From IMG/VR virus record IMGVR_UViG_3300009609_000013: a DNA stretch of 45,557 bases. The stretch is one strand, 5' to 3'. Positions 4,772 to 42,575 of this stretch are shown in pieces. This DNA comes from a virus. Within the stretch, counting starts at the first letter, position 1. Each line of letters begins with the position of its first letter. The position numbers were made by a program, and so were the translations under genes. Below the pieces are notes generated by a model, which saw only the letters and a list, made by a program, of their open reading frames with translations, ran no database searches and was not told the DNA's origin.

Positions 4772-4985
4772 GGCCTAAGCAAGATTGTCTCCCTTTGGGC
4801 AATGAGAGCTTAATTGCTTTATGGGCTTACTTGTAAAGGGACGCTTCGCTTGGCTCCTACGTCGCCACCCTTGACAAGCGCCCAGTCGCAATTCAGCAAA
4901 GAATTGCCCTTCGGGAGAAAATCTTGTCCGGCCTGGAAGCACCGGTAGAACAGCGGTACCCTAAGGGCTACGCGTTGCTCCGCCT
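4772..4985 (-). repeat. structured intergenic element, copy A
   Basis: Closing helix is 4913-4934 paired with 4772-4793. The central hairpin contains a 57-nt block (4825-4881) that is the exact reverse complement of 18005-18061. Limits are approximate. Confidence 0.75.
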
Positions 4986-5296
4986 ATCTGCTTTATAACA
5001 CCCTCATTGTGAGAAGCATTTTTAGCTGTTACTTTATCATCGTAAGCCATACGTTTACGCACTATTTGTGCCTTCCACATACTAGCCTCTAACAATAGAC
5101 TCTTTGTGTGGCTTGCATCGGGAGGTATTCTATTAGGGTAGTGGTCCCTCCTGGCTCGTAAGTACGATCCTAATATACGTGCATCTTCGAGGCATTCACA
5201 CACGTATATTATGGAACTTCCTATGCAACTGGAATCTTCACTGCTCATTATTGAGCATCCACCCAGTTTGGGCATTACGTGAATATAAGCTGGCAT
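4961..5296 (-). CDS. hypothetical protein
   Basis: 111-aa ORF preceded by palindrome M2 and GGAG (aaccGGAGcaatatATG). Its last ~25 nt run into element A. No recognisable domain. Confidence 0.5.
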   Translation of the reverse strand: MPAYIHVMPKLGGCSIMSSEDSSCIGSSIIYVCECLEDARILGSYLRARRDHYPNRIPPDASHTKSLLLEASMWKAQIVRKRMAYDDKVTAKNASHNEGVIKQIGGATRSP

Positions 5297-5302
5297 ATAT
5301 TG

Positions 5303-5325
5303 CTCCGGTTATAATCTAACCATAG
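5303..5325. promoter_or_regulatory. palindromic motif copy M2 (ctccGGTTATAATCTAACCatag)
   Basis: Variant of the 12-copy palindrome, intergenic, immediately 5' of the SD of the 5296 gene. Confidence 0.7.
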
Positions 5326-5374
5326 CACATTAACTGTTGCTTATGGGCCGGTCTTAGCGTGTGCCACACGCAAA

Positions 5375-5710
5375 TTACTCTACTCTATTAATTGACTTCT
5401 CACTACTAAACTTATCTCCATAACGCTGCTGTAACTTAGCTAGATTACTCTCAGCTATATCTTCTAGCTCACATCCATAAGCTGTACATGCTTCTGCAAT
5501 ATACCATAGGATATCACCAAGCTCTTCTTGTAACTTAGCTATATTAAGTGAGTGTCCATGGTATAACCATTTCTTGATTAAATCAGCTAACTCTCCAGCC
5601 TCTCCATTCAGCCCGAGAACAGCCATCGTAATATGATTACGAAAGTTTTCCTGCGATGGCTTAATCGCACTCGTTTTGCAAGCACATTTCTGGTAGTCAT
5701 TCAAATTCAC
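5375..5710 (-). CDS. mazG: MazG-like nucleoside triphosphate pyrophosphohydrolase
   Basis: LGLNGEAGELADLIKK...EELGDILWYIAEAC...AESNLAKLQQRY is the typical MazG EExxE/D helix pair. Confidence 0.85.
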   Translation of the reverse strand: MNLNDYQKCACKTSAIKPSQENFRNHITMAVLGLNGEAGELADLIKKWLYHGHSLNIAKLQEELGDILWYIAEACTAYGCELEDIAESNLAKLQQRYGDKFSSEKSINRVE

Positions 5711-6123
5711 TTTTTGCCTCGCATATCTATTCCACTTAGACGTTTCAGCGGTTGACCACCGAATGGTTTATGCTCAATGGTGAATCCAGCTTGCTTCATT
5801 ATCTTAATTAGATCGCTGGCCCAAAAACGTGTTTGGTTGCCGAAGTCTTGCATACTAGTCATTACAAATGCTGCACCCTCAATGAGTTCTTTAGCACGCT
5901 CTGGGCCAAGCTCATCTTGCCTTGCTCGTAGACGAAAGCCTAATGGAGTATTCTTATCTTCAATGAAGGCATTCCATGTAGCTTGACCCTGATAGCCCCA
6001 AGCCCACTCGCTGCGATCTACGATATAAATGCCACCTGCTAGATCGAGGTAATCGAATAGGTACTTTGCACCTGAAAGTGCTTCACGCAGCTGTCGTGAT
6101 TCTATTTGTCTGTCGTTAAACAT
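5707..6123 (-). CDS. hypothetical protein
   Basis: 138-aa ORF with a 4-nt stop/start overlap with mazG. No motif recognised. Confidence 0.65.
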   Translation of the reverse strand: MFNDRQIESRQLREALSGAKYLFDYLDLAGGIYIVDRSEWAWGYQGQATWNAFIEDKNTPLGFRLRARQDELGPERAKELIEGAAFVMTSMQDFGNQTRFWASDLIKIMKQAGFTIEHKPFGGQPLKRLSGIDMRGKK

Positions 6124-6182
6124 TAGCTAGTCTCCTTGAGTGTGTATTCCTTGCGAGTCAAATAAATAGCCAAAGAACATGC

Positions 6183-6377
6183 TTAATCTCCAGACTCAGA
6201 TTTGCGGCGTAGGTAAGTAGTGTTTTCGTGTACTTTGTATGCCAGGTATAATGATACGAGCATCATTACGGACATTATGCACAGCATTCCAATGGCCACT
6301 TTGCCGAAGAATATATTAGTGCTTTGCATCTCTGCGAGTAGAAGTATCGTCTTTTCAAGTGTTGCGGATGAGTCCAA
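6183..6377 (-). CDS. small membrane protein (one TM helix)
   Basis: IFFGKVAIGMLCIMSVMMLVSLYLAY. TTG start; an internal ATG (MQSTN) is an alternative start. Confidence 0.5.
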   Translation of the reverse strand: MDSSATLEKTILLLAEMQSTNIFFGKVAIGMLCIMSVMMLVSLYLAYKVHENTTYLRRKSESGD

Positions 6378-6510
6378 AGTGCAATTCCTTTAGGTAATGG
6401 CGTGTAACTTTCCGTGTGACACACGGCCCGCGCTAGTAATTTATTGTTTACTTATGGGCCGGTCGGTTGCCCCCAACCGAACTTACATTTAATTTAGTTG
6501 TCCTTATCAG

Positions 6511-6723
6511 TTATTGAAGTGTTAGCTTAGTCTCCTCTAAGTTGTGTATCTTATAGTATAAGAACGCCCTCTTTAGCCACGCAATTAAAGCAGGCATTTT
6601 TTGTTGCTTGAATTTACGCAGTAATGGTGCAGTGTTCATTATTACTCCTCTACAATCAACTTGTACAAGACAAGCAAAGTTTTCAGTAACTATTTGGTAG
6701 TCAATTGGTAATTGCGTGTTCAT
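6511..6723 (-). CDS. hypothetical protein
   Basis: Start moved to ATG 6723 (MNTQLPIDYQ), which has AAAGGAGT directly upstream. The longer 6783 start would translate palindrome M3 (WLNFNQ). Confidence 0.55.
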   Translation of the reverse strand: MNTQLPIDYQIVTENFACLVQVDCRGVIMNTAPLLRKFKQQKMPALIAWLKRAFLYYKIHNLEETKLTLQ

Positions 6724-6727
6724 ACTC

Positions 6728-6750
6728 CTTTGGTTAAAGTTTAACCATAG
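6728..6750. promoter_or_regulatory. palindromic motif copy M3 (ctttGGTTAAAGTTTAACCatag)
   Basis: Same 15-bp core as M1 and M12. Intergenic. Confidence 0.8.
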
Positions 6751-6839
6751 GATTTGGTCTAAGTAGAGATTTGCCGTAGCCACGCAGGCAGCTTATGGAA
6801 CCGAGCTGGTTGTGTGGTAGGAATTTTCCCTGCTTTTGT

Positions 6840-6985
6840 GCCGGCCAAGTTTTTCTCCGAAGGAGGTAATCCCAAAGGATTTCGGAGAGAGGGTTCTGTC
6901 AAGGGTGCCTCCAGCGCTAGCGCCTTGACAGGTCCCTCTTGTAGAAATACCCTCACTTACCTCCAGAGGAGAATAACTTGCTGGC
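6840..6985 (+). repeat. structured intergenic element, copy B (antisense to flanking genes)
   Basis: 5' arm gccggccaagtttttctcc pairs with 3' arm ggagaataacttgctggc. Hairpin 6896-6931 is ctgtcaagggtgc...gcgccttgacag. Orientation is set by the asymmetric arm sequences. Confidence 0.7.
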
Positions 6986-6992
6986 ATTTAAA

Positions 6993-7659: not shown

Positions 7660-8106
7660 CTAATTTTCTTTTCTGTATTGTTCCAGTAATTGTTGCATCT
7701 TTTGGCTAGATAGAGCCCTTTCTGCTACTTCTCGCATTCTTGATGCATCGGCCTCAGACCAATTAGGCTGTCGACCACGTGGTTTAGGTAGCTCTTCAAA
7801 TTCTTGTGTGTCAGTCTCAGCATCCACGTTCATGTTTTTGAGTGCTGCTGATGCGTACCTATCTGACTCTAGAAATGCTTTGCCATAACTTAGTCTTTTT
7901 AATAGGCGTGTTGCTTCTGCTGTATCTGTTATCCTTTCTACTCCTAGCTTCTCTACGAGAAGTTGCTCAAGAGTTTCTATTGCTAAGCGTGTTAATTGGC
8001 TTATGCTTCTTACGCGATTGTCTCCTTGCTCGAAGAATATAGCTAAGGTTGCCATCTTACATCTATCAACGGTTCCTTGTGCGAGCATATCATTTTTCTT
8101 TGTCAC
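7660..8106 (-). CDS. hypothetical early protein (paralogue of 8106-8375)
   Basis: GTG start with AGGAG upstream. MATLAIFF...RSISQLTRLAIETLE aligns with LANLAVYF...RSMSELTRLIVNTTE in the neighbouring product. Confidence 0.65.
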   Translation of the reverse strand: MTKKNDMLAQGTVDRCKMATLAIFFEQGDNRVRSISQLTRLAIETLEQLLVEKLGVERITDTAEATRLLKRLSYGKAFLESDRYASAALKNMNVDAETDTQEFEELPKPRGRQPNWSEADASRMREVAERALSSQKMQQLLEQYRKEN

Positions 8107-8375
8107 TATAGTTCTCCTATCCAGTTATCGTCCATGCTTGATTTATCACGTATAATTTGTGCTAGAATATGGTCAGCTTCCTCAGTGCTTGTTACTGGCT
8201 CAAATTTTTCCTGTTTTAGTACGGCTTTTTCTGTCGTATTGACTATAAGTCTTGTCAATTCACTCATACTTCGTGGCGTAATTCCTATTGAGTCGAAATA
8301 TACAGCTAAATTCGCTAGGCGAATCTTTTCGACTTGTCCTTGCACTACTATTTTCTTACTTCTAATCCCCAGCAC
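8106..8375 (-). CDS. hypothetical early protein (paralogue of 7660-8106)
   Basis: GTG start with GAGGAG upstream. First gene of the leftward early transcript. Confidence 0.65.
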   Translation of the reverse strand: MLGIRSKKIVVQGQVEKIRLANLAVYFDSIGITPRSMSELTRLIVNTTEKAVLKQEKFEPVTSTEEADHILAQIIRDKSSMDDNWIGEL

Positions 8376-8401: not shown

Positions 8402-8682
8402 GTTATGATGTTATGATGTTCAGCCTATGTCCCCCGGTATGCATTTACTTGCTATTTTTCCTAGAGTGCATTTACTTACTATTATACTATTTCTATTAGT
8501 ACTCTTTTCTCTCTCTCTCTATTATTACTATATATTTTTTATAGTAATAAAAGGAGGAAAAGGAAAGCTAACGCGTAAGTAAAAAAGACTCCTAAATAAG
8601 CCTTCTAAATAAGCCTTCTTAAATGCACTATAAGTAAAATATATCCAGGCCCCCATTGTCTGAACATCATAATGTCATTATA
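8402..8682. repeat. nested palindromic, AT-rich region in the divergent early control region
   Basis: Concentric inverted repeats around ~8540: 8411-8423 ttatgatgttcag with 8660-8672 ctgaacatcataa; 8462-8473 with 8621-8632 (11/12); 8522-8532 ttattactata with 8540-8550 tatagtaataa. The region also holds a (CT)6 run at 8509-8520 and a tandem 13-mer taaataagccttc x2 at 8593-8618. Confidence 0.8.
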
Positions 8683-8705
8683 TCATATGTTTCGTAAGTT
8701 GTCAA
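8677..8705 (-). promoter_or_regulatory. leftward early sigma70 consensus promoter (TTGACA-N17-TGaTATAAT)
   Basis: Minus strand reads gcTTGACAacttacgaaacatatgaTATAATgac. Its transcript would cross the nested palindrome before reaching the 8375 gene. Confidence 0.8.
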
Positions 8706-8799: not shown

Positions 8800-8828
8800 T
8801 TGACATTTCAGCAAAACTGTGATATAAT
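8800..8828 (+). promoter_or_regulatory. rightward early sigma70 consensus promoter (TTGACA-N17-TGaTATAAT)
   Basis: ccTTGACAtttcagcaaaactgtgaTATAATtac. Overlapping palindromes gcatcaaagatgc (8767-8779) and atgctataagcat (8776-8788) lie just upstream. Confidence 0.85.
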
Positions 8829-9634: not shown

Positions 9635-9657
9635 CTGCGGTTAAAATTCAACCAAAG
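9635..9657. promoter_or_regulatory. palindromic motif copy M4 (ctgcGGTTAAAATTCAACCaaag)
   Basis: Variant copy between the convergent genes 9267-9542 and 9718-9984. Confidence 0.65.
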
Positions 9658-11304: not shown

Positions 11305-11333
11305 ATTATACCACACTTTAGCCTCAATGTCAA
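11305..11333 (-). promoter_or_regulatory. sigma70 consensus promoter (TTGACA-N17-TGgTATAAT)
   Basis: Minus strand reads gcTTGACAttgaggctaaagtgtggTATAATtac. It fires into the GC-rich island. Confidence 0.8.
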
Positions 11334-11469: not shown

Positions 11470-11498
11470 TTGACATTTGCCCTCAAAACTGATATAAT
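11470..11498 (+). promoter_or_regulatory. sigma70 consensus promoter (TTGACA-N17-TGaTATAAT) heading the plus-strand arm
   Basis: gcTTGACAtttgccctcaaaactgaTATAATttg. Closely resembles the 8800 promoter (shared TTGACATTT and AAAACTG). Confidence 0.85.
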
Positions 11499-17844: not shown

Positions 17845-17867
17845 CTTTGGTTGAATTTTAACCAAAG
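17845..17867. promoter_or_regulatory. palindromic motif copy M5 (ctttGGTTGAATTTTAACCaaag)
   Basis: Intergenic, 90 nt 5' of element C. Confidence 0.75.
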
Positions 17868-17953
17868 CAATGGAGTTGTACTATGATCCCAAAACGCTAC
17901 GCCGCGCAGAATAGCGCGCCACTGATCCTGTTCCAGTACACACTCTTACTCCC

Positions 17954-18113
17954 AGGCCGGTCAAGTTTTTCCCCAAGGGGCGCTCTTAAGGGAATGCGAG
18001 TGGAGCGCTTGTCAAGGGTGGCGACGTAGGAGCCAAGCGAAGCGTCCCTTTACAAGTAAGCGACATGAGTGTTACCTTCTCAAGCCCCTGCAGGGAAATA
18101 ACTTGCTTAGGCT
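17954..18113 (+). repeat. structured intergenic element, copy C
   Basis: 5' arm aggccggtcaagtttttcccc pairs with 3' arm gggaaataacttgcttaggct. Hairpin cttgtcaaggg...ccctttacaag spans 18008-18056. The 57-nt block 18005-18061 is the reverse complement of 4825-4881. Confidence 0.75.
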
Positions 18114-18133
18114 AATTACTGAGGATAAATAAG

Positions 18134-20473: not shown

Positions 20474-20496
20474 CTTTGGTTAAACTTTAACCGGAG
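20474..20496. promoter_or_regulatory. palindromic motif copy M6 (ctttGGTTAAACTTTAACCggag)
   Basis: Intergenic, 20 nt 5' of ATG 20513. Confidence 0.8.
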
Positions 20497-27405: not shown

Positions 27406-27428
27406 CTTTGGTTAAATTCTAACCGCAG
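27406..27428. promoter_or_regulatory. palindromic motif copy M8 (ctttGGTTAAATTCTAACCgcag)
   Basis: Intergenic, 20 nt 5' of ATG 27445. Confidence 0.8.
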
Positions 27429-29112: not shown

Positions 29113-29135
29113 GTGTGGTTACATTTTAACCAAAG
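29113..29135. promoter_or_regulatory. palindromic motif copy M9 (gtgtGGTTACATTTTAACCaaag)
   Basis: Intergenic, 65 nt 5' of element D. Confidence 0.7.
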
Positions 29136-29196
29136 CAACAATGTAAAACTGTGGTGCCGAGCAACGCGAGGTCAGTGATTCCCTGTACTTCAGCGC

Positions 29197-29348
29197 GGCC
29201 AGGCATTTTCCCGCAGGTGGACATCCGAGTGAACGAGAGGAAGCAGGTTCTGTCAAGTTGCCGACTGTAAGGAGGCCGAACGTAGTGAGTCTTGACAGGT
29301 TCTGCTGTAAGGAGTAAACTCCCTAGGCCACCGTAGGGAAATGACTGC
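29197..29348 (+). repeat. structured intergenic element, copy D
   Basis: ggccaggcattttccc pairs with gggaaatgactgc. The hairpin is 29250-29298 (ctgtcaag...cttgacag). It shares the 21-nt block cgaacgtagtgagtcttgaca with copy E. Confidence 0.7.
29292..29320 (+). promoter_or_regulatory. sigma70-like promoter embedded in element D (TTGACA-N17-TAAACT)
   Basis: tcTTGACAggttctgctgtaaggagTAAACTccctagg, ~55 nt upstream of GTG 29376. Confidence 0.5.
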
Positions 29349-29375
29349 GAAAGCTGTTTACGGAGGTAATAGAAA

Positions 29376-32300: not shown

Positions 32301-34529
32301 GGTGAATCAGGTGCTATTGGTGGACGTGGACCATTCAACTTTAATCGAGAACGGCGAATGGCAGCTCAGCGACTCGAAGCTGACGCACGCCGTATTGGTT
32401 CAGGCTTTACTGATCTCTTTCGCCGTACACTTCCACCAGAACAGATACCAATGTTTGAGCGCTACTTAGAAGGTATATCTAATCCTGAACCACCAAAGGG
32501 TGTAGGACCGCAGCGAATGTCGCTTGACCCTGATGCTATTGCACGTGGCGATCAAGTAGTTAAGCATAGAGTAAATACTGAAGGTATTCCTCAAGGTCCA
32601 CCACTGTGGGAAAGTGATGTTATTCCTATTTATGATGCAGCTAACCCAGGTCGAAGTACATTTCGTGGACTAGAAGTTCCTATCTATTTAATGGAGCGAA
32701 TGGGACTGAAGGATCCAATTTACTACGCATATCGCACCGCGCAAAACGAGTATAATTTAGCACTCAATGCAATGCGTAAAGACTTGAAGTCAATGACCAA
32801 ATACTTCAGTCCATCATCGCGTGAGAGAATAGGCGCATATGCGTACTCAACAACGCCTGAGGGTATGAGATTACTAGAGCGTGCTAAGACAGAAGTTCCT
32901 ACTCTCAATCCAGCTGAGATGCGTGCGTACAATGAAATGCGCGGTATATATGAGGATTTCTATAACCGCATAAATGAAGTGCGTGAGGCGACCGGTCACG
33001 AACCGCTAATAAAGGTAGACAATTACTTTACTATGGCTCGTAGCTTCTCTGTAATGGAGCGGCTTGGAATAGTGCCAGATATGCTGCGTCATCCTCCAGC
33101 TGACATCAATGCTCAATTCACGAATCACTCAATTACACCGTTCCCGCATGCACGCTTACGAAGCGGCAGTACATACGCAGCTGAATTTGATGCCTTTCGT
33201 TTGATGGACCGATATGCAAGCTCATCATTGAAGCAAATACATATTGCTCCATTTATCTCGAAGCTCAATGAACTAATCGAAACTAAACTGCCTGATCCTA
33301 CTCAAACTAGCAAGCCTTGGGCTGAGCGTGATGTAAACTGGTCCCTAAAAGAGCAGAACGCAAATGCTTATAATGTACTGCATAGTTGGAAGGAATATCT
33401 TGCAACTGGCACAAATCAGTACAAGTTGCCACAGAAGGTTGAGAACTTCATTACAGTAGTTGGTAATAATCTAGCATATTCACTGCTGTCTGCTAACTTG
33501 CGTTCAGCCGGTGTGCAAATTAGTACGATGCGTAATACCTTCCAATCATTAGGATACATTCCAACAGTAGAGGGTGTTACTCGTTCTATAGGTGATATTG
33601 CAGCTGGTGGTGAACGCTGGAAGCGAGCACTCGATAAATCAGAAATTTTATCAGGACGGCGTTATCAAGATGCATTTTCTGGTATGGAATTTAGCTTAAC
33701 TGGATTTCGGCCACGGGAACTAGTAGGTGCAATTACTAGAGGACGATTCACTGAAATACAAGGTGCAGCCGCAGGTGCTGGTATGAAGTTCTTAGAAGTA
33801 ATGGATATGGTAAGTGCTAATGTGAGCTGGAATGCAGCGTACGATCATGCAACGAAAGCGTTGCGTAAAACTGATCGTGAGGCAATTAGAATTGCTGATG
33901 ACTTAGTGGTTAAGACCCAAGGTTCTACTATGCCTGGGGACTTAGCTGGCATTCAGCGTAGTGTAGCAGGTAAAGCTCTCACTCAATTCCAAACGTTCCT
34001 AATTAGCGATTGGAACTTTCTGCAACGTGAAGTGCTGGGATTAAAGGATCCTAAAATGACTTGGGGTGATACTGCTATGAATGCGGCAAGGTTTGTAGGT
34101 ACGACCGCAGCATTCAATGTTCTCTTTGAGAATGTACTTAACGTGCAGTCTCCATTTCCAACGTTTGTTAAAGATGCTAAATCTGCAATAGCGGATAATG
34201 ACAGCGATCCTTTGAAGATAGCATGGCGCTTAGCATCCGGCATACTTGAACCAATTCCAGTTATTGGTGCTTCTAGATACGGCAAAAGTATTGCAGGTCC
34301 TGCAGTAGAAGTAGGGCGCGATTTTACTCGTGGATTAGCTGGTTCTCCGCTGGCACCAAGTCCTTATGAATCACTAGCTAAAATGGCAGGTATTCCAGGC
34401 ACGCAGCAAATAGCTAAAACTTTACGTGCCAGGAACCGCGGAGAAGGTTGGTATAATTCTATCACTGGCTGGTATAGTGAAGATACAGGCACTAGGCGAG
34501 AAAGAGGTGGAAGACGTGCTAGAGATTAA
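29376..34529 (+). CDS. very large virion protein (1717 aa; internal core/ejection-protein candidate)
   Basis: GTG start with GGAGG upstream. It is the last large gene of the structural arm. An Ala/Arg/Pro-rich low-complexity segment holds three EPVTxLxDxLR-like repeats (~30350-30480). I could find no polymerase or lysozyme motif. Confidence 0.75.
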   Translation: MSTVVPISVNKLFGLGDDFNILDPKPAFNPLTPLTTPAKPDLEEALNNHYNATSETKLVGDQLPPPVSQTPETIQAGRTTLSKAGDLPIAAAKLADTGVGYLNQAIRGHTKFLTDVGEGMFGAATGLVTGAASMALSASDVLNTYAARTAREGPFAGSPFVEPTQATQRASMPDVFATPAEQSPTHFRDIFKRSEEATKGWSYEPKSETGKKTLELINTVPHAIKATSDFIADQATKIGMDPDKARLLSFGMELVLFYGLDKGVRAAAPELRSRVSDLRTKVRNARTDGELLSAPVLESATRLAESVNRYPEAGPALDAARARLVETLRRPITDLTTTLREPVTQLTDTLRTRAEEPVTGLADVLRRRQEQLGAAPGDSVRAPEVAAAAPREVAPAPALGDVSVAAAAPERMQPASDAASNYGLGYREVTADGRGSARHLYNNAMSPEAPKSVQTSALGELKSIAREGLRNNESTRIGLERLGFSPEEITAVEPRLRQVRATKSAESVPATSASTQIPAGVETPVSAVRGELDFGGMFSDLAGAIGGSFKDMLWDQYGKGSVQNTARVPELSLQVAKALKDAGIDIPRSRFDSMITEIEKIRAIASEQGLRGEAFRQPVAEYYNNLKRELEEGKRITTEVAKPDVQLTQTPEGELSYVKPTGEVVAKATELPAQVELARAAPGETVTLPPAPGIVDTAPVLEKPKRQRKIVKAKEESPVTAQDTVAGIAADAGVELGPTPARSSAVSYYPVRSMTELGERLGNAIPEAGTIAPERAAIQVRTNTVGAKPDALFLDTTGLNTLTTLAEIEKQISRGRMSRETGEAMIANLRRQAEIGDTTLANAHEYNGQRLQREATLMADMLGIDLYVKKGKNYEQVPRDVVAADAKLNRGDVTTPSGVTKDEAAALADFRSAPIGPEQLKEIIDSSEKGIDISNSLPSELAPHYRTLLEAERQGINLSERRNFIDILKDVNTLLGESGAIGGRGPFNFNRERRMAAQRLEADARRIGSGFTDLFRRTLPPEQIPMFERYLEGISNPEPPKGVGPQRMSLDPDAIARGDQVVKHRVNTEGIPQGPPLWESDVIPIYDAANPGRSTFRGLEVPIYLMERMGLKDPIYYAYRTAQNEYNLALNAMRKDLKSMTKYFSPSSRERIGAYAYSTTPEGMRLLERAKTEVPTLNPAEMRAYNEMRGIYEDFYNRINEVREATGHEPLIKVDNYFTMARSFSVMERLGIVPDMLRHPPADINAQFTNHSITPFPHARLRSGSTYAAEFDAFRLMDRYASSSLKQIHIAPFISKLNELIETKLPDPTQTSKPWAERDVNWSLKEQNANAYNVLHSWKEYLATGTNQYKLPQKVENFITVVGNNLAYSLLSANLRSAGVQISTMRNTFQSLGYIPTVEGVTRSIGDIAAGGERWKRALDKSEILSGRRYQDAFSGMEFSLTGFRPRELVGAITRGRFTEIQGAAAGAGMKFLEVMDMVSANVSWNAAYDHATKALRKTDREAIRIADDLVVKTQGSTMPGDLAGIQRSVAGKALTQFQTFLISDWNFLQREVLGLKDPKMTWGDTAMNAARFVGTTAAFNVLFENVLNVQSPFPTFVKDAKSAIADNDSDPLKIAWRLASGILEPIPVIGASRYGKSIAGPAVEVGRDFTRGLAGSPLAPSPYESLAKMAGIPGTQQIAKTLRARNRGEGWYNSITGWYSEDTGTRRERGGRRARD

Positions 34530-34530: not shown

Positions 34531-35094
34531 TTGCTTTGGATAGATTTTAACCACAGCAATATAATTCACTTGTTTGTCATTCTCTTTTTACTTAGTTCTT
34601 GCTCGCACCAAAAAGATAAGTTTACTCTAATTGAGGGTGAAATTATACTAACAATTCCTTACTCTACGGCATCAGTGTCTACAAGTGGAAATATAAAAGC
34701 TGGCACAATTACTCCAGAAGAGTTTCAGAAGCAATATGGTACTTTAATTGCCACGACTCCCGAAGCAGGGACGCTGTTCACACTATATTTTATTACTGGT
34801 ACTACAACGCTTACACCAGAGAGCTTACATGAGATACCTTTAATAAAAGCTGAAATTGAACGACGTAAATTTGTTGAGATTGAGATAACCGGACATGCAG
34901 ACCAGACTGGCGATTATGCTAATAATGATCAGCTTTCATTATCTCGTGCTGAACTGGCACGAAGTACTATTGAGAATGATGGAATATACGTAGATTTTGT
35001 ACGTGTTATAGGACGCGGCTCACGTGCACCGCTTATTGATTCTCCAGGAAAAGATGAGCCTAAAAACAGACGCGTTGAAATTCTAGTACGTTAG
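34531..35094 (+). CDS. OmpA/Pal-like peptidoglycan-binding lipoprotein
   Basis: Lipobox LFLLSSC followed by an OmpA_C pattern: EIEITGHADQTGDYANNDQLSLSRAELARSTI...GRGSRAPL...NRRVEILV. The start is uncertain (TTG 34531, GTG 34507 or TTG 34570). The listed ATG 34426 overlaps the upstream gene by 104 nt. Confidence 0.75.
   Translation: MLWIDFNHSNIIHLFVILFLLSSCSHQKDKFTLIEGEIILTIPYSTASVSTSGNIKAGTITPEEFQKQYGTLIATTPEAGTLFTLYFITGTTTLTPESLHEIPLIKAEIERRKFVEIEITGHADQTGDYANNDQLSLSRAELARSTIENDGIYVDFVRVIGRGSRAPLIDSPGKDEPKNRRVEILVR
34534..34556. promoter_or_regulatory. palindromic motif copy M10 (ctttGGATAGATTTTAACCacag)
   Basis: Degenerate left half. Lies between the 1717-aa gene and the lipoprotein signal peptide. 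Confidence 0.65.
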
Positions 35095-36583: not shown

Positions 36584-39500
36584 TTATATTCCTAAAGTTA
36601 AAATTGCATCTTGTAGATATGCTTCCAATACATACGGATCATTACTAAATTTGTCTCCTTTCAATTCAATACCTAAATGCTTGTTTAGGCATAAGTTAAC
36701 TACTAAATCAACTGGCACCACAAATTCCACGTTACGATACCGTAACGGAGCTTCCAGAGAAGCTTTAATACTTAATAGAATTCGTGCGTGATCTGCAAGT
36801 GGTAAGCTCAACGGTATTTGAATACTAACCGAATCGTGTACTTGAGTAAGTAACTCAACGTGCTTGAATAGTGGATCTGAATTATAGTAGATGAAATTTA
36901 GTCCCTGTTCATTTACTAAATCTCCGCACGTACCTTGAGGGATACAACTATAAGCCTCATTGAGCAGCTTGTCATCATACTTTCCTAAAAACGTAATTTT
37001 CCTGCCATACAAGTTAGTGAGTGTGCGTGTAGACTTGATTGTATCTTCTACATATTTCCAGTATCCACCTTTAAGTCCTGGATAAGCTGCGTGATATCTA
37101 TCGTAAATAAATTTAGCTTGTCGTTCAGGTATTTCATACTTGAGGCTAAATGACTTGTATCCAAAACCGTAATTAAAACCGTGATTTGCTCTCTTCGACC
37201 AATCCCTCTGTGAATGAGTGCCATTACCCAAGCTAGATGATCCATGCTCATTACTAACTTCGTCATATGGCACTCCAAATATAAGTGCCCCAGTCATACG
37301 ATGTATATCTAAGTTGTTTTCGTACACTTCTTTCATTTGCGTGATATTACCAACGTACGCAACAATACGTGCTTCAATCTGCGACATATCAAGTGAATAA
37401 ATAACGTATCCTGCATCTGCTACGTAGTAGCTAAGCACATCATGAGGTATATTCTGCAAGTTAGTGTTTCCTGTGACGCATATTCTATCCTCGTATCGAG
37501 TAAGAAAAAATGAAGTCTCAGTTTCTATACAGTAAACAGGTCCATCGTAATTGATCAAACTAAAATAATCCTCCTGTTGTTTTGCTAATACTCTAGGCTT
37601 TATATTAACAGTGTATAATCCTTTAGCTGAGAATTCTCCGTACGATTCCAGAGCTCTATTTTCACCCCAATTTATTGTTGCTGATTTGCCGCACAAGTGC
37701 GCAAGTGTAGCTACCCATTCGGCATTCTGTTTTACTGCAGTAAAATACCAAAAGCTCGTTCCTCTTCTATGTGCATCCCAGTGTGAAATTTCGTCCAATA
37801 AAGAACTTAGACTTTGCTGGTCAAATCTAAGCAACCACGAATCAAAGAGTTTGCTTCTGCCACTCCTATTAAGTAATTCTATGAACTCCTTACACTCACT
37901 TACAGGCAAGTAAAATCTTCTGTACCCATTATATGCAGTACGATGTTCGTTGTATTGAATCCCGAATATTTCCATAAGTACTAAGAAACGTGCTATCTTT
38001 TCCTTTTTCTTAAATTGAAAGGTTATAGAATTTCCTTCTATACTGCCGTCAGCTTGTATTACTGCCAATAGACGTATTGCAGGCCAGCTTATTTTTCCAC
38101 TTTTATACTCCCCTCCTATAGGCAGCATCCACTCACCAGTAAATACGGCTTCGTATGCAGGCTTAACTATAAATTTATTACGGTGTGAGACTGTAGGTAT
38201 TCTATGATCTAGCGTATAACAGTTTCTGTGTAACGTTGAGTTAGCACGTATCATCTTACCGCTATTTTTTGTTACGTGTATTTTTGGTACACACCATGAT
38301 AGCGACCAATCAGTATCCCATTGAAGTACTTCTGTATCTTCTTTTAATTCATCTAGTCTAATCCATCCACTTTTTGTGAATACCTCAGCTCTAGGAAGTA
38401 AACAACCAGTTCCGAATATATTTGCACTGCTTGATATTCTACTAAATCGTGTACCTACTGGATTATATGAGCATCTCATACGACCGTCATCATCTACGTT
38501 CTCGACGTTGAGAAATGTTGATGCCTTCTTTTGCAGCCGGCGAACCTCAAGTATTAAACTTGCTTCTTTAAATCCCTTGTTAGCTATACGTGTTAATGCT
38601 TCCTCATCTACAGTAGGCTTGCCAATCTTACTCAAGTATGGAGCTAACCCACGATTCGTATAAAAATACTCGCATACTTGCTGCGGTGAAGCCAAGTTAA
38701 ACGCATTAGTGTTCATTATACTATATGCCTGTTGCGTTAATTCATCAGCTTCCAATCGAGCATTTCTTGCAGCCCTATCCATACCCTCACGATCTATTCT
38801 GATTCCACGCTCCATCATATAGCTTAATGGTCCAACTAATTTTATTTGACGCTCGTATGCATCGTAATTACCACGCTCTTCCAATTCAGCTAGCTGCTTA
38901 GGAAATGCATCCGCACATGCGATACTATCAAGACAGTTGTAGGCCCAGCCCTTGCTATATTCACCTACACCAGTTAGCCACAACTTGCCGTCACGTTTAT
39001 AGTAAGGAATGTCCGTCCACATTGCAGTGATAAATTCCAGTGTTTTGCCTCGGTACGTTTTGCCACCAAAATCTGGATAGAGAATATGCTGAGCTATCAT
39101 CGTATCAGCTTTGATATTACGCGTACGAATTCCATACTTGCGTAGCAGAAAGTGTGAATCGAATACTATATTCTGCCCGCCTTTTATATAACTATCATTG
39201 CCAAGAAGATTTTCGATGCTTAACATCAGCTCATATTCTTGTTCAGCGCTAAAATAATCACCATTTGCATCCACGAATGGAATGCACAGCACATCAATTT
39301 CGTTAGTTGCAAAGCTAATACAGCTTAGCTCTTGTGTCTTAGGTGTTAATTCAATGTCGTAATATATTATACCTCCATTCTCAGCTACTTGTTTGCACTC
39401 TTCTAACCAGCTTATACATTCGTAGTAGCTAGGTTGAGTACGCAATTTGCGATCAGTTAATCTAATATCAGGAAATTCAGATTCTGTACGAATCTTCTTA

Positions 39501-40018
39501 AAGTCTAGTGTAATGAGATACTTCGCAAGATACGCTGCTGGATTCGCGAGCACTTTTTCATCAGTGTATATAGCAGGATGTAGCGTAGGGATGACTTTCC
39601 TTCCCGGCAGGAGAGTTGATTCAAGTATACTACCACGCCATGCAGTAATTCCAACTCGACCCGTAAGAGCAAATAATGAAGTGTTTCCCATAGCAACAAT
39701 AACATTAGCTTTAGTTTTGTTGAGTTCGTCGCGCAGCACCTCTAAATACCGCTGACCAAGTACGCTTATATTCGCACGTCCATTCACACCGGACTTAATA
39801 TCTAAGTAATGTTTGAGTTCGAATTCAACGTCCTTAATTACATTAGTTAGATAACAGCTGCCTCGTGAAATCCTAGCATTCATGAGACACTCATTGAGGT
39901 TTCTACCAGCTGGTCCCATGAAGGGTTTACCATAGCGTACTTCATACTTTGCCGGCTGCTCGCCAACAAGTGCTATTTTGCTACTCAACAGTCCGTCTGG
40001 TCCGACTAGCTGCGGCAT
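36584..40018 (-). CDS. polA: family-A DNA polymerase with N-terminal UDG-superfamily domain, interrupted by an intein
   Basis: UDG-like motifs: LVGEQPAKYE, GKPFMGPAG, TLHPAIY. Exonuclease motif: IYYDIELT. Polymerase motifs: SLDMSQIEARI, TNLQNIP, LTQVHDSV. 1144 aa, of which 313 aa are intein. Confidence 0.9.
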   Translation of the reverse strand: MPQLVGPDGLLSSKIALVGEQPAKYEVRYGKPFMGPAGRNLNECLMNARISRGSCYLTNVIKDVEFELKHYLDIKSGVNGRANISVLGQRYLEVLRDELNKTKANVIVAMGNTSLFALTGRVGITAWRGSILESTLLPGRKVIPTLHPAIYTDEKVLANPAAYLAKYLITLDFKKIRTESEFPDIRLTDRKLRTQPSYYECISWLEECKQVAENGGIIYYDIELTPKTQELSCISFATNEIDVLCIPFVDANGDYFSAEQEYELMLSIENLLGNDSYIKGGQNIVFDSHFLLRKYGIRTRNIKADTMIAQHILYPDFGGKTYRGKTLEFITAMWTDIPYYKRDGKLWLTGVGEYSKGWAYNCLDSIACADAFPKQLAELEERGNYDAYERQIKLVGPLSYMMERGIRIDREGMDRAARNARLEADELTQQAYSIMNTNAFNLASPQQVCEYFYTNRGLAPYLSKIGKPTVDEEALTRIANKGFKEASLILEVRRLQKKASTFLNVENVDDDGRMRCSYNPVGTRFSRISSSANIFGTGCLLPRAEVFTKSGWIRLDELKEDTEVLQWDTDWSLSWCVPKIHVTKNSGKMIRANSTLHRNCYTLDHRIPTVSHRNKFIVKPAYEAVFTGEWMLPIGGEYKSGKISWPAIRLLAVIQADGSIEGNSITFQFKKKEKIARFLVLMEIFGIQYNEHRTAYNGYRRFYLPVSECKEFIELLNRSGRSKLFDSWLLRFDQQSLSSLLDEISHWDAHRRGTSFWYFTAVKQNAEWVATLAHLCGKSATINWGENRALESYGEFSAKGLYTVNIKPRVLAKQQEDYFSLINYDGPVYCIETETSFFLTRYEDRICVTGNTNLQNIPHDVLSYYVADAGYVIYSLDMSQIEARIVAYVGNITQMKEVYENNLDIHRMTGALIFGVPYDEVSNEHGSSSLGNGTHSQRDWSKRANHGFNYGFGYKSFSLKYEIPERQAKFIYDRYHAAYPGLKGGYWKYVEDTIKSTRTLTNLYGRKITFLGKYDDKLLNEAYSCIPQGTCGDLVNEQGLNFIYYNSDPLFKHVELLTQVHDSVSIQIPLSLPLADHARILLSIKASLEAPLRYRNVEFVVPVDLVVNLCLNKHLGIELKGDKFSNDPYVLEAYLQDAILTLGI
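37466..38404 (-). mobile_element. intein (313 aa) with LAGLIDADG homing-endonuclease domain in the polymerase gene
   Basis: Starts at Cys in FGTG/CLLPRAEV. Block B is TLDH. The endonuclease motifs are LLAVIQADGSI and LLDEISHWDAH. It ends ...VYCIETETSFFL...ICVTGN/TNLQNIP, which places it immediately N-terminal of the conserved (P)NLQNIP motif. The penultimate residue is Gly rather than the usual His. Confidence 0.8.
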
Positions 40019-40257: not shown

Positions 40258-41603
40258 TTTGCTCTTACCTCATGAATAAGCCTATTAATGTACGCATTAT
40301 GGAAGTTTGGACTCAAGTCAAAGCCAACACTTTTGTGACCAAGCTCAAATGCAGTTCGTATTGTTACTCCACTTCCTGCGAATGGTACAAGTATATTCGA
40401 TCCGGGCCAAACAAAAGTGTCGAGTATTTCTTTCATCAAAGCCGATGGCCTCTCAGTTGGATGTATACGCTGCGAAGGTGGTACTCCCGCAAAGTCGAAC
40501 ACATTACTCCTACCTTGTTTACGTATTTGTGCACCTCCTTTTCTGCCGTACACGAACATTTCGTAGGAGTTACCTAAGTTAGTTGACATTCCCTGCGCTT
40601 GCCCTTGTGAATTACCCTTCTTCCATATAGCTGGAATTTTGCACGTCTCAAACTTCGCACGTTGCATAGTACTTATAACACGTGCAATATGTTCTGGCCC
40701 ACACCAGATGATGATATAGCTGTTGTCAGCAGCAAGTCGATAACACTCATCAGTTAGGCGGTTTAGGAATGCTAGATAATCTACGTTACTAATCTCCTTA
40801 TAATCGTGCTGCAAACTTGGATTAGTATCACCATCAGCACGTTGCTCTTGCAAGTCAATTCCATACGGTGGATCACACTCTATAAATCCAAACTGTGCAG
40901 GCTCAAGTGAATTATCGAAGAAGTCACCTACTATGTATGCACTAAGCGGATCATCAGGACTTGTCATACGACCAGATAGCACGGCGTCTCTGCGAGCTTC
41001 AGCAACAGCAACTTTATTCGTTATCACACTCGCTGCACGCGCAAGCTTCTTTAGTGCCGCTGACTTATTCTTCTCTTTATCAAGTTCAAGTTCAGGCAAG
41101 ACACGCATGGCATCAGCGAGTTTCATATCTTGCAGAATAGTAGCATGGCTTACTCCTAATGTACGAGCAGTATCTCTAACTGAATGCCCAGGAGCATCTG
41201 CACTACGTGCTACTTTCTCACCGTGAATTTGAACAAGTGTTAAATGTAGACGCTCTTTCATTTTCACTTCTTCGCTGTAGTTTAAACTGAGTCGGTCTAG
41301 ATTCTCGAATAGTTCTACAGCTGCAAGTTCTAGATCAGTCATAGGCTTGTCATAAATACGGCAACTAATTTCGTCCATTTTTAGTGCTGTGCAAGCCATG
41401 AAACGTCTACCACCGGCCACAAGTTTATATGGCTGCTCACCAGTCGGAGAGTACACAGCAATCGGATGTATTAATCCGTACTTTTCAATTGAGGTCATTA
41501 AGTCCTGTATAATGCCATAGTCTTGACGACCGCGGTGATCTGAGTCTAGATCAATTTGCTCCATTGGAATAACGCGCAGAATGCCGAGATTAATTGTAGG
41601 CAT
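40254..41603 (-). CDS. ParB-like N-terminal domain fused to an N6/N4 DNA methyltransferase
   Basis: N-terminus: GLIHPIAVYSP...YKLVAGGRRFMAC plus an HTH. C-terminus: FIECDPPYG (motif IV) then NILVPFAGSGVT (motif I), which is the beta-class motif order. Confidence 0.85.
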   Translation of the reverse strand: MPTINLGILRVIPMEQIDLDSDHRGRQDYGIIQDLMTSIEKYGLIHPIAVYSPTGEQPYKLVAGGRRFMACTALKMDEISCRIYDKPMTDLELAAVELFENLDRLSLNYSEEVKMKERLHLTLVQIHGEKVARSADAPGHSVRDTARTLGVSHATILQDMKLADAMRVLPELELDKEKNKSAALKKLARAASVITNKVAVAEARRDAVLSGRMTSPDDPLSAYIVGDFFDNSLEPAQFGFIECDPPYGIDLQEQRADGDTNPSLQHDYKEISNVDYLAFLNRLTDECYRLAADNSYIIIWCGPEHIARVISTMQRAKFETCKIPAIWKKGNSQGQAQGMSTNLGNSYEMFVYGRKGGAQIRKQGRSNVFDFAGVPPSQRIHPTERPSALMKEILDTFVWPGSNILVPFAGSGVTIRTAFELGHKSVGFDLSPNFHNAYINRLIHEVRAK

Positions 41604-41833
41604 TACAGTAGATTCTCCTGGCGCTTAGCCATTAATGTGTAATAGAGATCAGCTAATTGCTTTTCACTAAGATTAGCTATTGCGGATTCGGCAGTAATCT
41701 CTTTACGTTTCTCACGGGTAGGCTTAGGTTCTACTAATCTACGACGTAGGCGCATTTCGAGGACCAGTTTCATTCCTTCTTCAGGAGGTAAGTTAGATAA
41801 GCTGATTATTTTTAAGTCATCTAATGAAGCCAT
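41603..41833 (-). CDS. hypothetical protein
   Basis: 76-aa ORF with GAGGATAA upstream and a TAATG overlap with the downstream gene. Confidence 0.6.
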   Translation of the reverse strand: MASLDDLKIISLSNLPPEEGMKLVLEMRLRRRLVEPKPTREKRKEITAESAIANLSEKQLADLYYTLMAKRQENLL

Positions 41834-41857
41834 TTATCCTCGCAATCCTATTTCCTT

Positions 41858-41994
41858 GCAGAGCCTAGGGATTATGATGCTGCACTGCGCTGCTTGTCAA
41901 GACTCACTACGTTCGACCCCTACGGGGCAACTTGACAACCTGCTCGTTTGCTGGAAGCAAGAGTAGGCTCTGCCGGAAAAAGTCTTGTCGGCTC
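41858..41994 (-). repeat. structured intergenic element, copy E
   Basis: Closing helix gcagagcct (41965-41973 on the minus strand) pairs with aggctctgc (41858-41866). Hairpin is 41893-41938. The 5' arm gagccgacaagactttttccgg lies at 41973-41994. Confidence 0.7.
41871..41900 (-). promoter_or_regulatory. sigma70-like promoter embedded in element E (TTGACA-N18-CATAAT)
   Basis: Minus strand reads tcTTGACAagcagcgcagtgcagcatCATAATccctagg, ~35 nt upstream of ATG 41833. Confidence 0.5.
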
Positions 41995-42082
41995 GGGAAG
42001 TGGGAGTCTGTACTTGGACCGTATCACCTTCCCTCGCAAGCTCGGGCCATTACGCTTTGGGATTATAGCACGCATGAATCTC

Positions 42083-42105
42083 CTTTGGTTAAAATCTAAC
42101 CAGAG
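42083..42105. promoter_or_regulatory. palindromic motif copy M11 (ctttGGTTAAAATCTAACCagag)
   Basis: Intergenic, 92 nt 5' of element E in the minus sense. Confidence 0.75.
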
Positions 42106-42110
42106 CACTT

Positions 42111-42338
42111 TCATTCCACTCTCCTCATGTAGTCTTGAACTGTACGCTTGTAACTCACCTCGCGGCTAAGCATTGCGAGCACAAAGTATTGGCCAAACTC
42201 ATCGAGCATAACTATTGCATCATCCACTATTACACTGAAGACTTGCTTAAGCTGGCCATGCTCCAGGTGCTGCTTGAGCTTGTTATATTGCTGATCAGTT
42301 ACCTCAAATGTTATCCTGTGTGTATAAGGCTTATTCAT
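42111..42338 (-). CDS. hypothetical protein (possible ribbon-helix-helix N-terminus)
   Basis: 75 aa, with RITFEVTDQQYNKLKQ. AGGAG upstream. Confidence 0.55.
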   Translation of the reverse strand: MNKPYTHRITFEVTDQQYNKLKQHLEHGQLKQVFSVIVDDAIVMLDEFGQYFVLAMLSREVSYKRTVQDYMRRVE

Positions 42339-42353
42339 AGCATGCTCTCACTC

Positions 42354-42376
42354 CTGTGGTTAAAGTTTAACCGCAG
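42354..42376. promoter_or_regulatory. palindromic motif copy M12 (ctgtGGTTAAAGTTTAACCgcag)
   Basis: Same 15-bp core as M1 and M3. Intergenic. Confidence 0.8.
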
Positions 42377-42434
42377 CAGGTTGTGGCACTGATGCAGCTC
42401 GCACCGTGCTGCCCTTATAAGACCGATGCTGTTG

Positions 42435-42575
42435 GGCCGGGTCTTGCCTTAAAGGCATTTTCCCCCTGGTGACCAACATCTTTTCACGAAAGGTCACGCT
42501 GTCAAGGGTTTAAGCGAAGCGTCCCTTGACAGCACTAGTGACCTGTAGTGATATAATTAAGTCACCAGGAGGAAT
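42435..42575 (+). repeat. structured intergenic element, copy F (antisense to flanking genes)
   Basis: ggccgggtc...cattttccccctggtgac pairs with gtcaccaggagg. The perfect 11-bp-stem hairpin 42498-42533 (gctgtcaaggg/cccttgacagc) has a loop carrying aagcgaagcg, as in A and C. Confidence 0.7.
42526..42557 (+). promoter_or_regulatory. extended -10 promoter (TGaTATAAT) on the plus strand, antisense to the arm
   Basis: TTGACA lies at 42526-42531, 20 nt from TATAAT (42552-42557), which is preceded by TGa. AGGAGG and ATG 42576 follow. Confidence 0.55.

Follow-up and report, generated by a model that had tools for sequence, protein, structure and literature searches.

Intergenic hairpins that may serve as promoter cassettes in the genome of an uncultured tailed phage

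The genome of an uncultured tailed phage, IMG/VR record IMGVR_UViG_3300009609_000013, contains six copies of an intergenic element in which the boxes of a sigma-70-type promoter, with activity predicted from their sequence, lie in the descending arm of a long hairpin. The stretch of DNA analyzed is 45,557 nucleotides long and is called the window here. Each copy (A to F) forms a single imperfect hairpin of about 160 nucleotides and about 55 base pairs, referred to as the rod. The copies are tentatively read as promoter cassettes built into a hairpin, with the fold acting mainly in DNA. We infer the promoter activity, the molecule that folds, and the purpose of the fold from the motifs and their conservation, from the pairing and covariation, and from the positions and strand bias of the copies.

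A covariance model built from copies A, B, and C and three copies from relatives, with D, E, and F outside the seed, locates six places in the window and no others. They are exactly the six gaps in which a first-pass annotation, made from the letters of the window, had placed the family. The forward strand scores above the reverse strand in every copy, showing that the family has polarity. The stem CTKTCAAG/CTTGACAR and the loop motifs (AAGCGAAGCG in A, C, and F, and CGAACGTAGTGAG in D and E) are present as that annotation described them. Relatives were sought in IMG/VR with a conserved 20-mer, four phage proteins, and one gapped pattern, and in the JGI metagenomes with the capsid protein. Together with the covariance model, these pattern and protein searches give 23 to 24 distinct copies, about 18 of which lie beyond the window in close relatives (loci there carry labels such as L012:255). 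All contigs holding copies found through protein relatives have about 76% or higher capsid protein identity to the window. A few further copy-bearing contigs were found by the DNA pattern alone, and no copy was found in relatives at 72% capsid identity or less.

The promoter boxes are conserved: TTGACA is the -35 hexamer, and the A and final T are the -10 bases that matter most for sigma-70. In the model alignment, TTGACA (columns 154 to 159, the 3' strand of the apical stem) is conserved in 18 to 23 of the 23 distinct copies. In the -10 region of the same copies, T is found at column 188 in 17, A at 189 in 22, T at 193 in all 23, and C at 194 in 21, while columns 190 to 192 are variable. The -35 variants are TTTACA (A, C, and L009) and TTGACT (two copies), and one copy has lost the box (L032:19936). 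The -10 hexamers extend from TATAAT and CATAAT to TACACT and TAAGCT. The spacer is 17 to 20 nucleotides long, with one copy at 21, and 16 copies have 17 to 19 nucleotides; a TGn extended -10 is present in four of the six whose spacer is 20 or 21 nucleotides. A generic promoter scan scores D and E at 10 to 11 of 12 matches. The boxes also have a constant place in the hairpin. The -35 is paired in all copies, and the -10 is at or in an internal loop, with columns 189 to 194 unpaired, the T of column 188 modeled as paired, and strong -10 hexamers fully unpaired. The gaps had been set apart as non-promoter gaps, and this description does not hold, since the 3' arm of the copies carries TTGACA, 17 to 20 nucleotides, and TAnnnT. 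The TTGACA that had been seen in both arms is there, but it is simply the -35 hexamer and its complement.

The boxes point toward genes in most copies. A ribosome-binding site and a start codon follow on the same strand in 17 of the 23 copies, giving a predicted leader of 30 to 50 nucleotides. In the window, copies A, C, D, and E face a downstream gene. Copy A is followed by AGGAG and the ATG of open reading frame (ORF) 4524-4757(-). Copy C precedes GAGGA and the GTG of ORF 18134-18922(+), the gene in the scaffold position upstream of the capsid gene. After copy D come GGAGG and the GTG of ORF 29376-34529(+), which encodes 1717 amino acids, and after copy E come GAGGA and the ATG of ORF 41603-41833(-), followed by the genes for the ParB-methyltransferase, polymerase, and primase. 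B and F face against early genes: both are inverted relative to the adjoining minus-strand genes (early genes in the case of B), and F is followed by AGGAGG and the ATG of a doubtful ORF of 57 amino acids. Inverted copies also include the orthologues of B (L012:255 and L036:710), L031:20792, and L032:14175. A single replication switch point was considered as an explanation of the orientations; it fits five of the six copies in the window and eight of eight in contig 3300045884_000072, but it fails for the inverted late-region copy (3300044455_000078). Leader peptides were considered too, but the short ORFs in several copies, read in the downstream flanks, share neither sequence nor frame. The earlier view that conservation is at the level of nucleotides and pairing and not of protein is supported. 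In some copies (Table 1) a short ORF begins at an ATG within P2 or P3 of the rod (GGGAAATG) and stops at the main start codon or overlaps it (TAAATG, TAATG); its peptides are not conserved.

Each copy folds as one long rod and not as a multi-branched RNA. From base to apex the rod consists of P1 (GGCC/GGCY), P2 (six variable pairs), a TT bulge, P3 (TYTCC/GGARA), an internal loop of two to three nucleotides per side that often reads G-N-A on both strands, P4 (seven variable pairs), a larger internal loop, P5 and P6 (both variable, with a small loop of G-A-N against n-n-A-G between them), the apical stem, and the apex. The apical stem, TGTCAAG/CTTGACA, is invariant in this anatomy apart from the box variants given above. 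The apex holds one or two mini-hairpins, mostly closed as C-GNA-G (GCGAAGC, ACGTAGT, GCGTAGC, CCCGAAGGG). The terminal arms of the element, GGCCGG..CAAG..TTTCCC and GGGAAA..CTTG..GGCC, are terminal inverted repeats. Conserved unpaired positions besides the boxes are G-A in the 5' internal loop, A-G in the 3' internal loop, and the TT bulge. In copy F a local hairpin takes the place of the outer helices. The short variable hairpin and small GC hairpin that had been described as separate elements turn out to be opposite strands, 5' and 3', of P4/P5 and the P3/P4 junction, which pair across the arms.

The helices differ in sequence between copies while the pairing is kept. The covariation figures are not to be taken as probabilities, since they come from related copies in an alignment that was fitted to the model, but the margin is still very large: 86.2% of the cells are paired, compared with 63.3 ± 0.9% in shuffles and 36-44% with the partners slid, and the covariation score is 0.51, compared with 0.16 and 0.06-0.09. 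Both sides have changed in 38 of the 44 pairs. Changes in both partners of a pair are very common, and changes in only one partner hardly occur. The forward rows by themselves give 85.4% paired cells (62.3 ± 1.1% in shuffles) and a score of 0.58 (0.18), and the six window copies alone form 84.7% of the model pairs, with compensatory change in 23 of 44. The proposal that pairing survives sequence change is thus borne out, and the relatives in which copies were to be sought do have them, with compensatory changes. In genomes that are 70-78% identical, orthologous copies such as B and L012:255 have wholly different helix sequences and the same pairing. Of the pairs that had been assigned to the closing helix, those of E (GCAGAGCCT/AGGCTCTGC) and F (CCTGGTGAC/GTCACCAGG) belong to P4.

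A fold at the level of DNA is favored over one in RNA alone by three features: the variable helices are almost wholly of Watson-Crick type, the C-GNA-G loops are strand-specific, and the fold is kept in inverted copies. Helices 2 to 6 contain 504 Watson-Crick pairs, 10 G-T pairs, and 12 A-C pairs. C-GNA-G is a classic and very stable DNA mini-hairpin. The pentamer C-G-N-A-G is found 59 times on the forward strand of the copies and its complement 13 times, and its density is about 15 per kb in the copies versus 2.7 per kb genome-wide, a five- to sixfold difference. Although copy B and its orthologues L012:255 and L036:710 are antisense to the adjoining genes, no helix has been lost in them, and the helix sequences differ. 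The reading as RNA that was implied at first is disfavored by the same features.

The promoter cassettes would work in duplex DNA as follows. The sigma-70 holoenzyme would start transcription about seven nucleotides past the -10, where the 3' strand of P4 begins, and the leader of 30 to 50 nucleotides would run into the ribosome-binding site of the next gene. A duplex promoter accounts for the boxes, their conservation, and their position ahead of genes. The 5' arm is a compensated complement of the promoter boxes and the predicted leader. The forward strand, presumably whenever it becomes single-stranded, would fold into the rod of about 55 base pairs, with the -35 double-stranded, the -10 at or in an internal loop, the apex capped by C-GNA-G mini-hairpins, and a downstream duplex. 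The fold may act mainly in DNA, on a displaced or lagging strand or through extrusion driven by supercoiling, and not in RNA only. The rods would be a second promoter class beside six perfect-consensus early promoters.

Several observations weigh against promoter cassettes with a DNA-level fold. When folded as RNA, the forward strand exceeds its complement in stability by 4.6 kcal/mol on average (Wilcoxon p = 5e-4), a difference that is greater for sense copies than for inverted copies (p = 0.065). The wobble pairs GGTTC/GGTTC that flank the apical stem are conserved at its base, which is evidence of an RNA type. With large apical and internal loops, extruding a cruciform from duplex DNA is kinetically unfavorable. 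On the folded forward strand the template would be the 5' arm, so RNA made on it would lead away from the downstream gene, which does not suit expression of the genes after A, C, D, and E. A primase and a polymerase are encoded by the phage itself, and the need for primers made by RNA polymerase is not evident. At the same junctions, sister phages have unrelated structured cassettes without an obvious sigma-70 promoter (described below), and a promoter may not be what those junctions need. Finally, the pattern by which a similar hairpin was found in filamentous phages (also below) already demanded AGGCCGG, TGTCAAG, and CTTGACA, and homology is not established.

In an alternative reading, the promoter works in duplex DNA and the rod matters only in read-through transcripts, where RNase III or another RNase would bind or cut it. 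Processing would separate the upstream and downstream messages and define the 5' end of the downstream mRNA, as at T7 RNase III sites and co-transcribed Correia or enterobacterial repetitive intergenic consensus (ERIC) elements. Here 17 of 23 copies lie within same-strand operons and must be transcribed through, and the rod would supply a duplex of RNase III size (at least about 20 base pairs) in the modeled read-through RNA. The forward-strand preference of RNA folding, with z-scores down to -8 and a stronger effect in sense copies, also fits, as do the conserved G-U pairs, 45 of 55 of which belong to helix 1 or the base of the apical stem. With the rod formed, openness of the ribosome-binding site is slightly greater than with the 5' half shuffled (0.54 versus 0.48, p = 0.03). 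A related candidate, an anti-Shine-Dalgarno clamp formed by CTTCC of the 5' flank, was rejected, as the predicted unpaired probability of ribosome-binding site and start codon is 0.54 in the read-through RNA and 0.53 in the promoter-started RNA. Correia elements are described as joining promoters and RNase III binding (PMC2649163). On the other hand, the covarying helices 2 to 6 contain only 2% G-U and an equal share of A-C, which is unusual for RNA under selection. The conserved loops are C-GNA-G triloops; the loops common in RNA are tetraloops. The inverted copies (B and its orthologues, F, L031:20792, and L032:14175) keep the forward-strand features although this is not their mRNA strand. 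Rfam 15 gives no match at gathering thresholds for the window and five related loci and none at E <= 10 for copy C, in agreement with the earlier statement that no known RNA family fits. Overall this alternative is somewhat unlikely.

The unit that contains the rod runs further upstream than the bounds first given for the copies, to a palindrome and a semi-conserved block. The palindrome, GGTT-N7-AACC (15 nucleotides), is found 60 to 105 nucleotides upstream of the rod in 21 of 22 copies. It is followed by the block GAGCAACGCG, which can form a small hairpin with a C-AAC-G loop and a covarying stem (GC/GC, CAC/GTG, GCAC/GTGC), and a conserved flank, (G/T)TRCTTCC, adjoins the rod. The palindrome is also a repeat family of its own. 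The window has 11 to 12 sites, with 21 strand matches compared with 0.2 expected, and the wider consensus is TTGGTTAAAnTTTAACCAA. Many of the palindromes stand alone in short gaps directly after stop codons. The palindrome could be an operator, a hairpin at mRNA ends, or a recombination site. Two further promoter candidates in this region are not supported: a promoter upstream of the whole unit, which would make the entire rod a leader and for which a plausible TATGAT or TATAAT after the palindrome is found only in C, E, and L006, and a sigma-54-like or extracytoplasmic function (ECF)-like reading of the GAGCAACGCG block, whose spacing is not kept.

The distribution of the units could instead be that of a selfish or recombination-driven mobile cassette, comparable to miniature inverted-repeat transposable elements (MITEs), Correia elements, or the promoter-early stem-loop (PeSL) repeats of T4-type phages. 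Palindrome, linker, and fold-back would spread among gaps and phages, the arms would stay complementary by templated repair within the hairpin and not by selection, and the outward promoter would be carried along. Watson-Crick-only double changes are the outcome expected of templated correction. Copy positions and numbers differ among genomes that are 70-78% identical: there are six in the window, eight in contig 3300045884_000072, at least two in 3300017791_000168, and one found in 3300044455_000078. Both orientations exist, and G+C content is higher in the rods (0.47-0.59) than in the genome as a whole (about 0.42). Apical modules have been swapped between copies. A and C have 56 identical nucleotides, and the orthologues upstream of the giant gene (D, L034:20056, L032:19936, and L025:17757) have four different apices, one of them without TTGACA but with the hairpin kept.

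The gaps that hold rods appear to be landing places for several kinds of insert. Sister phages have at least two other families of strongly folded non-coding cassettes, 200-250 nucleotides long, at rod junctions and always after the palindrome. Their cores are, for example, ATAGTCATAGC..TTATAC..TAGGT and CTTTGTTTCCRTGTCAA. No consistent sigma-70 boxes and no Rfam match were found for these X and Y types. In L027 (9479-10000) an HNH-endonuclease-like domain is fused to the small protein that is encoded after copy E in the window, and there is no rod at that place. A similar hairpin is also found in unrelated filamentous phages. The inovirus-type contigs L100 and L103, which encode the coat protein phrog_1646, have a G+C-rich (0.63), nearly perfect hairpin of about 150 nucleotides that has three features in common with the rods: AGGCCGG at the base, CTGTCAAGG..GCGTAGC..CCTTGACAG at the apex, and TTAGGCT as the 3' flank. 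The hairpin sits on the strand bearing all structural genes, which we take to be the strand packaged as single-stranded DNA. This hairpin is a lead and not proof of homology; it may be a minus-strand origin or a common mobile element. Nine contigs (eight such as L085, plus L100, already counted above among the two hairpin contigs) match a pattern of 92-93 nucleotides, but apart from L100 they contain only a 9-base-pair TGTCAAGAT hairpin and no rod, and they were judged unrelated.

Other findings speak against mobility of the usual kind. Target-site duplications are absent: the longest direct repeat common to both flanks averages 3.7 nucleotides for the rod and 4.0 for the unit, compared with 3.8 at random. 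No transposase was found among the 26 ORFs searched, which are a minority of those in the window. No precisely empty site was seen, and the same gaps in relatives hold other cassettes. No match of the element was found by blastn in isolate phages or in 72,556 plasmids. The 20-mer GAACGTAGTGAGTCTTGACA, of the D/E apical type, is absent from 185,579 bacterial species genomes, in a narrow scan with this one 20-mer; the other narrow scan of species genomes was aimed at the capsid protein and gave no related phage that would point to a host. The conserved asymmetric loops and fully compensated orthologues, such as B and L012:255, indicate long-term selection on the fold. A mobile cassette without selection on its fold is unlikely. 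Recombination at the palindrome and at ribosome-binding-site sequences, as has been proposed for PeSLs, described as composite terminator/promoter repeats that mediate shuffling (PMC4122927), fits better than transposition. The element is confined to one narrow clade of uncultured phages from soil and sediment, and filamentous phages may hold a cousin of it.

It is very unlikely that the element is a cis-acting structured RNA or protein-binding leader without a promoter (a regulator site, ribozyme, or riboswitch-like RNA whose boxes are conserved for other reasons), since the conserved unpaired G-A, A-G, and TT positions, the covarying small hairpin of the linker, and the constant location upstream of or beside start codons would suit such a role, but the coincidence of TTGACA, a spacer of 17-20 nucleotides, and a conserved -10 A and T is left unexplained, Rfam has no match at any threshold tried, inverted copies exist, and the variable helices are almost without G-U.

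Among known systems, the element is most like the hairpin promoters of Frpo/ssi and of the f1 minus origin, Correia-type repeats, and PeSLs. It appears to be a member of none of these; it lacks the Frpo geometry in most copies, sequence similarity, target duplication, and the small size of PeSLs. The f1 minus-strand origin reportedly has the properties described by Higashitani et al. 1997. Like this origin in f1/M13 and Frpo/ssi of the conjugative plasmids F and ColIb-P9, all of them read by host RNA polymerase, the rod is a strand-specific, long, imperfect hairpin in which the -35 is double-stranded and the -10 presented. As with Frpo/ssi, it is repeated in several intergenic gaps and stands directly ahead of a ribosome-binding site and start codon (Frpo properties are drawn from PMC9849209 and PMC11541004). 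Frpo2 of the F plasmid, folded in this analysis, forms a long imperfect rod followed by the ribosome-binding site and ATG of ssb. There are also clear differences. The genome here is that of a double-stranded tailed phage without a known single-stranded stage, Frpo is about 330 nucleotides long compared with about 160 for the rod, and no sequence similarity was found by the blastn search of plasmids. Both boxes of the rod are on one arm with normal spacing and should work in duplex DNA, opposite to the hairpin-templated direction. The Frpo geometry, with the gene 5' of the hairpin on the folding strand, is found only in inverted copies (B, F, and L031:20792), and 17 of 23 copies run away from the adjoining gene. 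No bidirectional promoter with Frpo geometry by way of a reverse-strand -10 was found in copies A and L006, which were inspected by hand. As the hairpin direction is opposite to the duplex direction, the two modes would have different outputs. The hairpin direction suits a primer, as at the f1 minus origin, or copies B and F, where it would give a sense transcript of the adjoining minus-strand gene.

Correia elements belong to the MITEs of bacterial chromosomes and have terminal repeats and a TA duplication. Like Correia and ERIC elements, the rods are intergenic inverted repeats of about 100-160 base pairs that are present in many copies and both orientations; those elements can supply promoters, as the rods are predicted to do. 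In contrast to Correia elements, they have no target duplication and no host copy by the single 20-mer scan, their promoter is internal, with the -35 in the apical stem, and is not made at the ends, and their helices covary between copies rather than being near-identical. Correia elements are described as being co-transcribed into hairpins that are bound or cut by RNase III (PMC2649163). PeSLs bear a partial resemblance to the rod units: they combine a conserved terminator-like stem-loop with sigma-70-type promoter motifs, repeated in phage gaps, and have been tied to the swapping of neighboring modules (PMC4122927, PMC2839356); the palindrome and putative promoter of the rod unit mark gaps whose content differs between sister phages. 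PeSLs are presented as small composite sequences, and the account of them in PMC4122927 that is drawn on here mentions no long covarying fold-back. The rod promoter, by comparison, is inside a compensated rod of 55 base pairs, 60-105 nucleotides from the palindrome, and there is no sequence relation.

Two more systems share single features with the rods. The promoter of the N4 virion RNA polymerase is a small, unusually stable DNA hairpin with a purine-rich loop of three nucleotides that is extruded from one strand, and the rod apices carry C-GNA-G mini-hairpins on one strand only. The N4 stems are 5-7 base pairs long and are used by a phage-encoded single-subunit polymerase, whereas the rods have sigma-70 boxes. 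No N4-type polymerase was detected in the window. The 1717-amino-acid protein encoded after copy D has no Pfam or PDB sequence match, and the idea that it is a hidden RNA polymerase was set aside. T7-like RNase III sites are repeated intergenic hairpins with internal loops at module boundaries, often beside promoters. They differ in being about 60 nucleotides long and downstream of the promoter, hence present in all transcripts, while the promoter of the rod is within the hairpin and transcripts begun there would be without the 5' arm.

The window is a complete genome, and the phage has genes for a terminase, a portal-like protein, a major capsid protein, a DNA polymerase, a primase, a ParB-methyltransferase fusion, an exonuclease, and a Sak4-like annealing protein. 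Minus-strand genes run from about 8375 down through the genome ends to 35113, and plus-strand genes run from about 8890 to 35094. The first and last 123 nucleotides are 100% identical, either as a circular assembly overlap or as a short direct terminal repeat, and the true genome is about 45.4 kb. By capsid protein the nearest named relative is Desulfofustis phage LS06-2018-MD01 (50% identity), and LUZ24/119X-type podoviruses are more distant relatives. No DNA-level match of the window was found among isolate phages. The six perfect-consensus sigma-70 promoters (TTGACA, 17 nucleotides, TGnTATAAT; 12 of 12 matches) are confined to the early region at 2-11.5 kb, in AT-rich surroundings without inverted repeats, and are, judged by their motifs, a promoter class separate from the rod-borne boxes. 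The DNA polymerase gene (ORF 36584-40018, minus) is interrupted by about 940 nucleotides (about 313 amino acids) that are missing from all relatives, whose polymerases have about 827 amino acids. The extra segment overlaps a weak ribonucleotide-reductase PHROG match and is probably an intein or homing-endonuclease insertion. The adjoining early genes 7660-8106(-) and 8106-8375(-) encode paralogous products with similar N-terminal regions.

Table 1. Coordinates of the rods, their promoter boxes, and other features of the window and of related contigs.
Feature	Position	Strand	Details
Copy A	4768-4937	-	covariance model 170.6 bits
Copy A, -35	4832-4837	-	TTTACA
Copy A, -10	4807-4812	-	TAAGCT
Copy A, 5'-arm TGTCAAG	4870-4876	-	
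Copy A, upstream block (GAGCAACGCG, CTTCC)	extends to about 4985	-	
Copy B	6835-6992	+	covariance model 124.8 bits
Copy B, -35	6925-6930	+	TTGACA
Copy B, -10	6948-6953	+	TACCCT
Copy C	17951-18115	+	covariance model 138.3 bits
Copy C, -35	18049-18054	+	TTTACA
Copy C, -10	18073-18078	+	TACCTT
Copy D	29189-29355	+	covariance model 65.4 bits
Copy D, -35	29292-29297	+	TTGACA; 17-nucleotide spacer
Copy D, -10	29315-29320	+	TAAACT
Copy E	41833-41998	-	covariance model 48.7 bits
Copy E, -35	41895-41900	-	TTGACA; 18-nucleotide spacer
Copy E, -10	41871-41876	-	CATAAT, unpaired
Copy F, model match	42455-42579	+	23.7 bits, E = 1.4e-4
Copy F, rod	42425-42579	+	
Copy F, -35	42526-42531	+	TTGACA; 20-nucleotide spacer
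Copy F, -10	42552-42557	+	TGaTATAAT, unpaired
Palindrome of unit B	6732-6746		GGTTAAAGTTTAACC; 88 nucleotides upstream of rod
Palindrome of unit C	17849-17863		GGTTGAATTTTAACC
Palindrome of unit D	29117-29131		GGTTACATTTTAACC
Palindrome of unit E	42087-42101		GGTTAAAATCTAACC
Palindrome of unit F	42358-42372		GGTTAAAGTTTAACC; 20 nucleotides from start of ORF 42111-42338(-)
Palindrome	1328-1342		
Palindrome	5307-5321		
Palindrome	9639-9653		
Palindrome	20478-20492		
Palindrome	22219-22233		
Palindrome	27410-27424		
Palindrome	34536-34554		
Short ORF ending at main start codon, copy D	29325-29400		also in downstream flanks of L034:20056, L032:19936, L025:17757, L001:510, L009:1251
Perfect-consensus promoter	2007-2035	-	full sigma-70 consensus, extended -10
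Perfect-consensus promoter	4476-4504	-	full sigma-70 consensus, extended -10
Perfect-consensus promoter	8677-8705	-	full sigma-70 consensus, extended -10
Perfect-consensus promoter	8800-8828	+	full sigma-70 consensus, extended -10
Perfect-consensus promoter	11305-11333	-	full sigma-70 consensus, extended -10
Perfect-consensus promoter	11470-11498	+	full sigma-70 consensus, extended -10
Polymerase insertion	37463-38401		in ORF 36584-40018
Identical end	1-123		
Identical end	45435-45557		
X-type cassette	L031 18895-19185	-	
X-type cassette	L026 9450-9740	+	
Y-type cassette	L010 8505-8800	+	
Y-type cassette	L008 340-640	+	
Y-type cassette	3300017791_000168, E position		
Other-cassette region	3300017791_000168, 30500-31020		
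Other-cassette region	3300017791_000168, 31290-31560		
Inovirus-type hairpin	L103 2911-3064	+	
Inovirus-type hairpin	L100 8085-8238	-	

The hairpin-borne boxes have potential significance for how phages use the host polymerase. The rod family, the 15-nucleotide palindrome, and the two other cassette types are not in Rfam, and in annotation they would otherwise be read as empty gaps or spurious small ORFs. The cassettes mark sites of non-coding module exchange among sister phages and are informative on the evolution of regulatory regions. A bolder proposal, and quite an unlikely one, is that this tailed double-stranded DNA phage uses hairpin promoters for the host sigma-70 polymerase, such that the forward strand, laid bare by replication, recombination, or supercoil-driven extrusion, folds with its -35 in duplex form and its -10 already melted, and a primer or replication-coupled transcript is made. 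The same design would be the minus-strand origin in a group of filamentous phages. If this were true, single-strand promoters of the Frpo/f1 type would be extended to tailed phages as a replication-dependent promoter class. If the main reading, that of promoter cassettes built into a hairpin, is right, the same host polymerase is served in this phage group by two promoter classes, one early with perfect consensus and the other wrapped in hairpins. The hairpin class would then provide a compact, testable case of promoter activity tied to nucleic-acid structure, which is so far known from conjugative plasmids, filamentous phages, and N4. It would bear on the timing of middle and late genes in phages without their own RNA polymerase.

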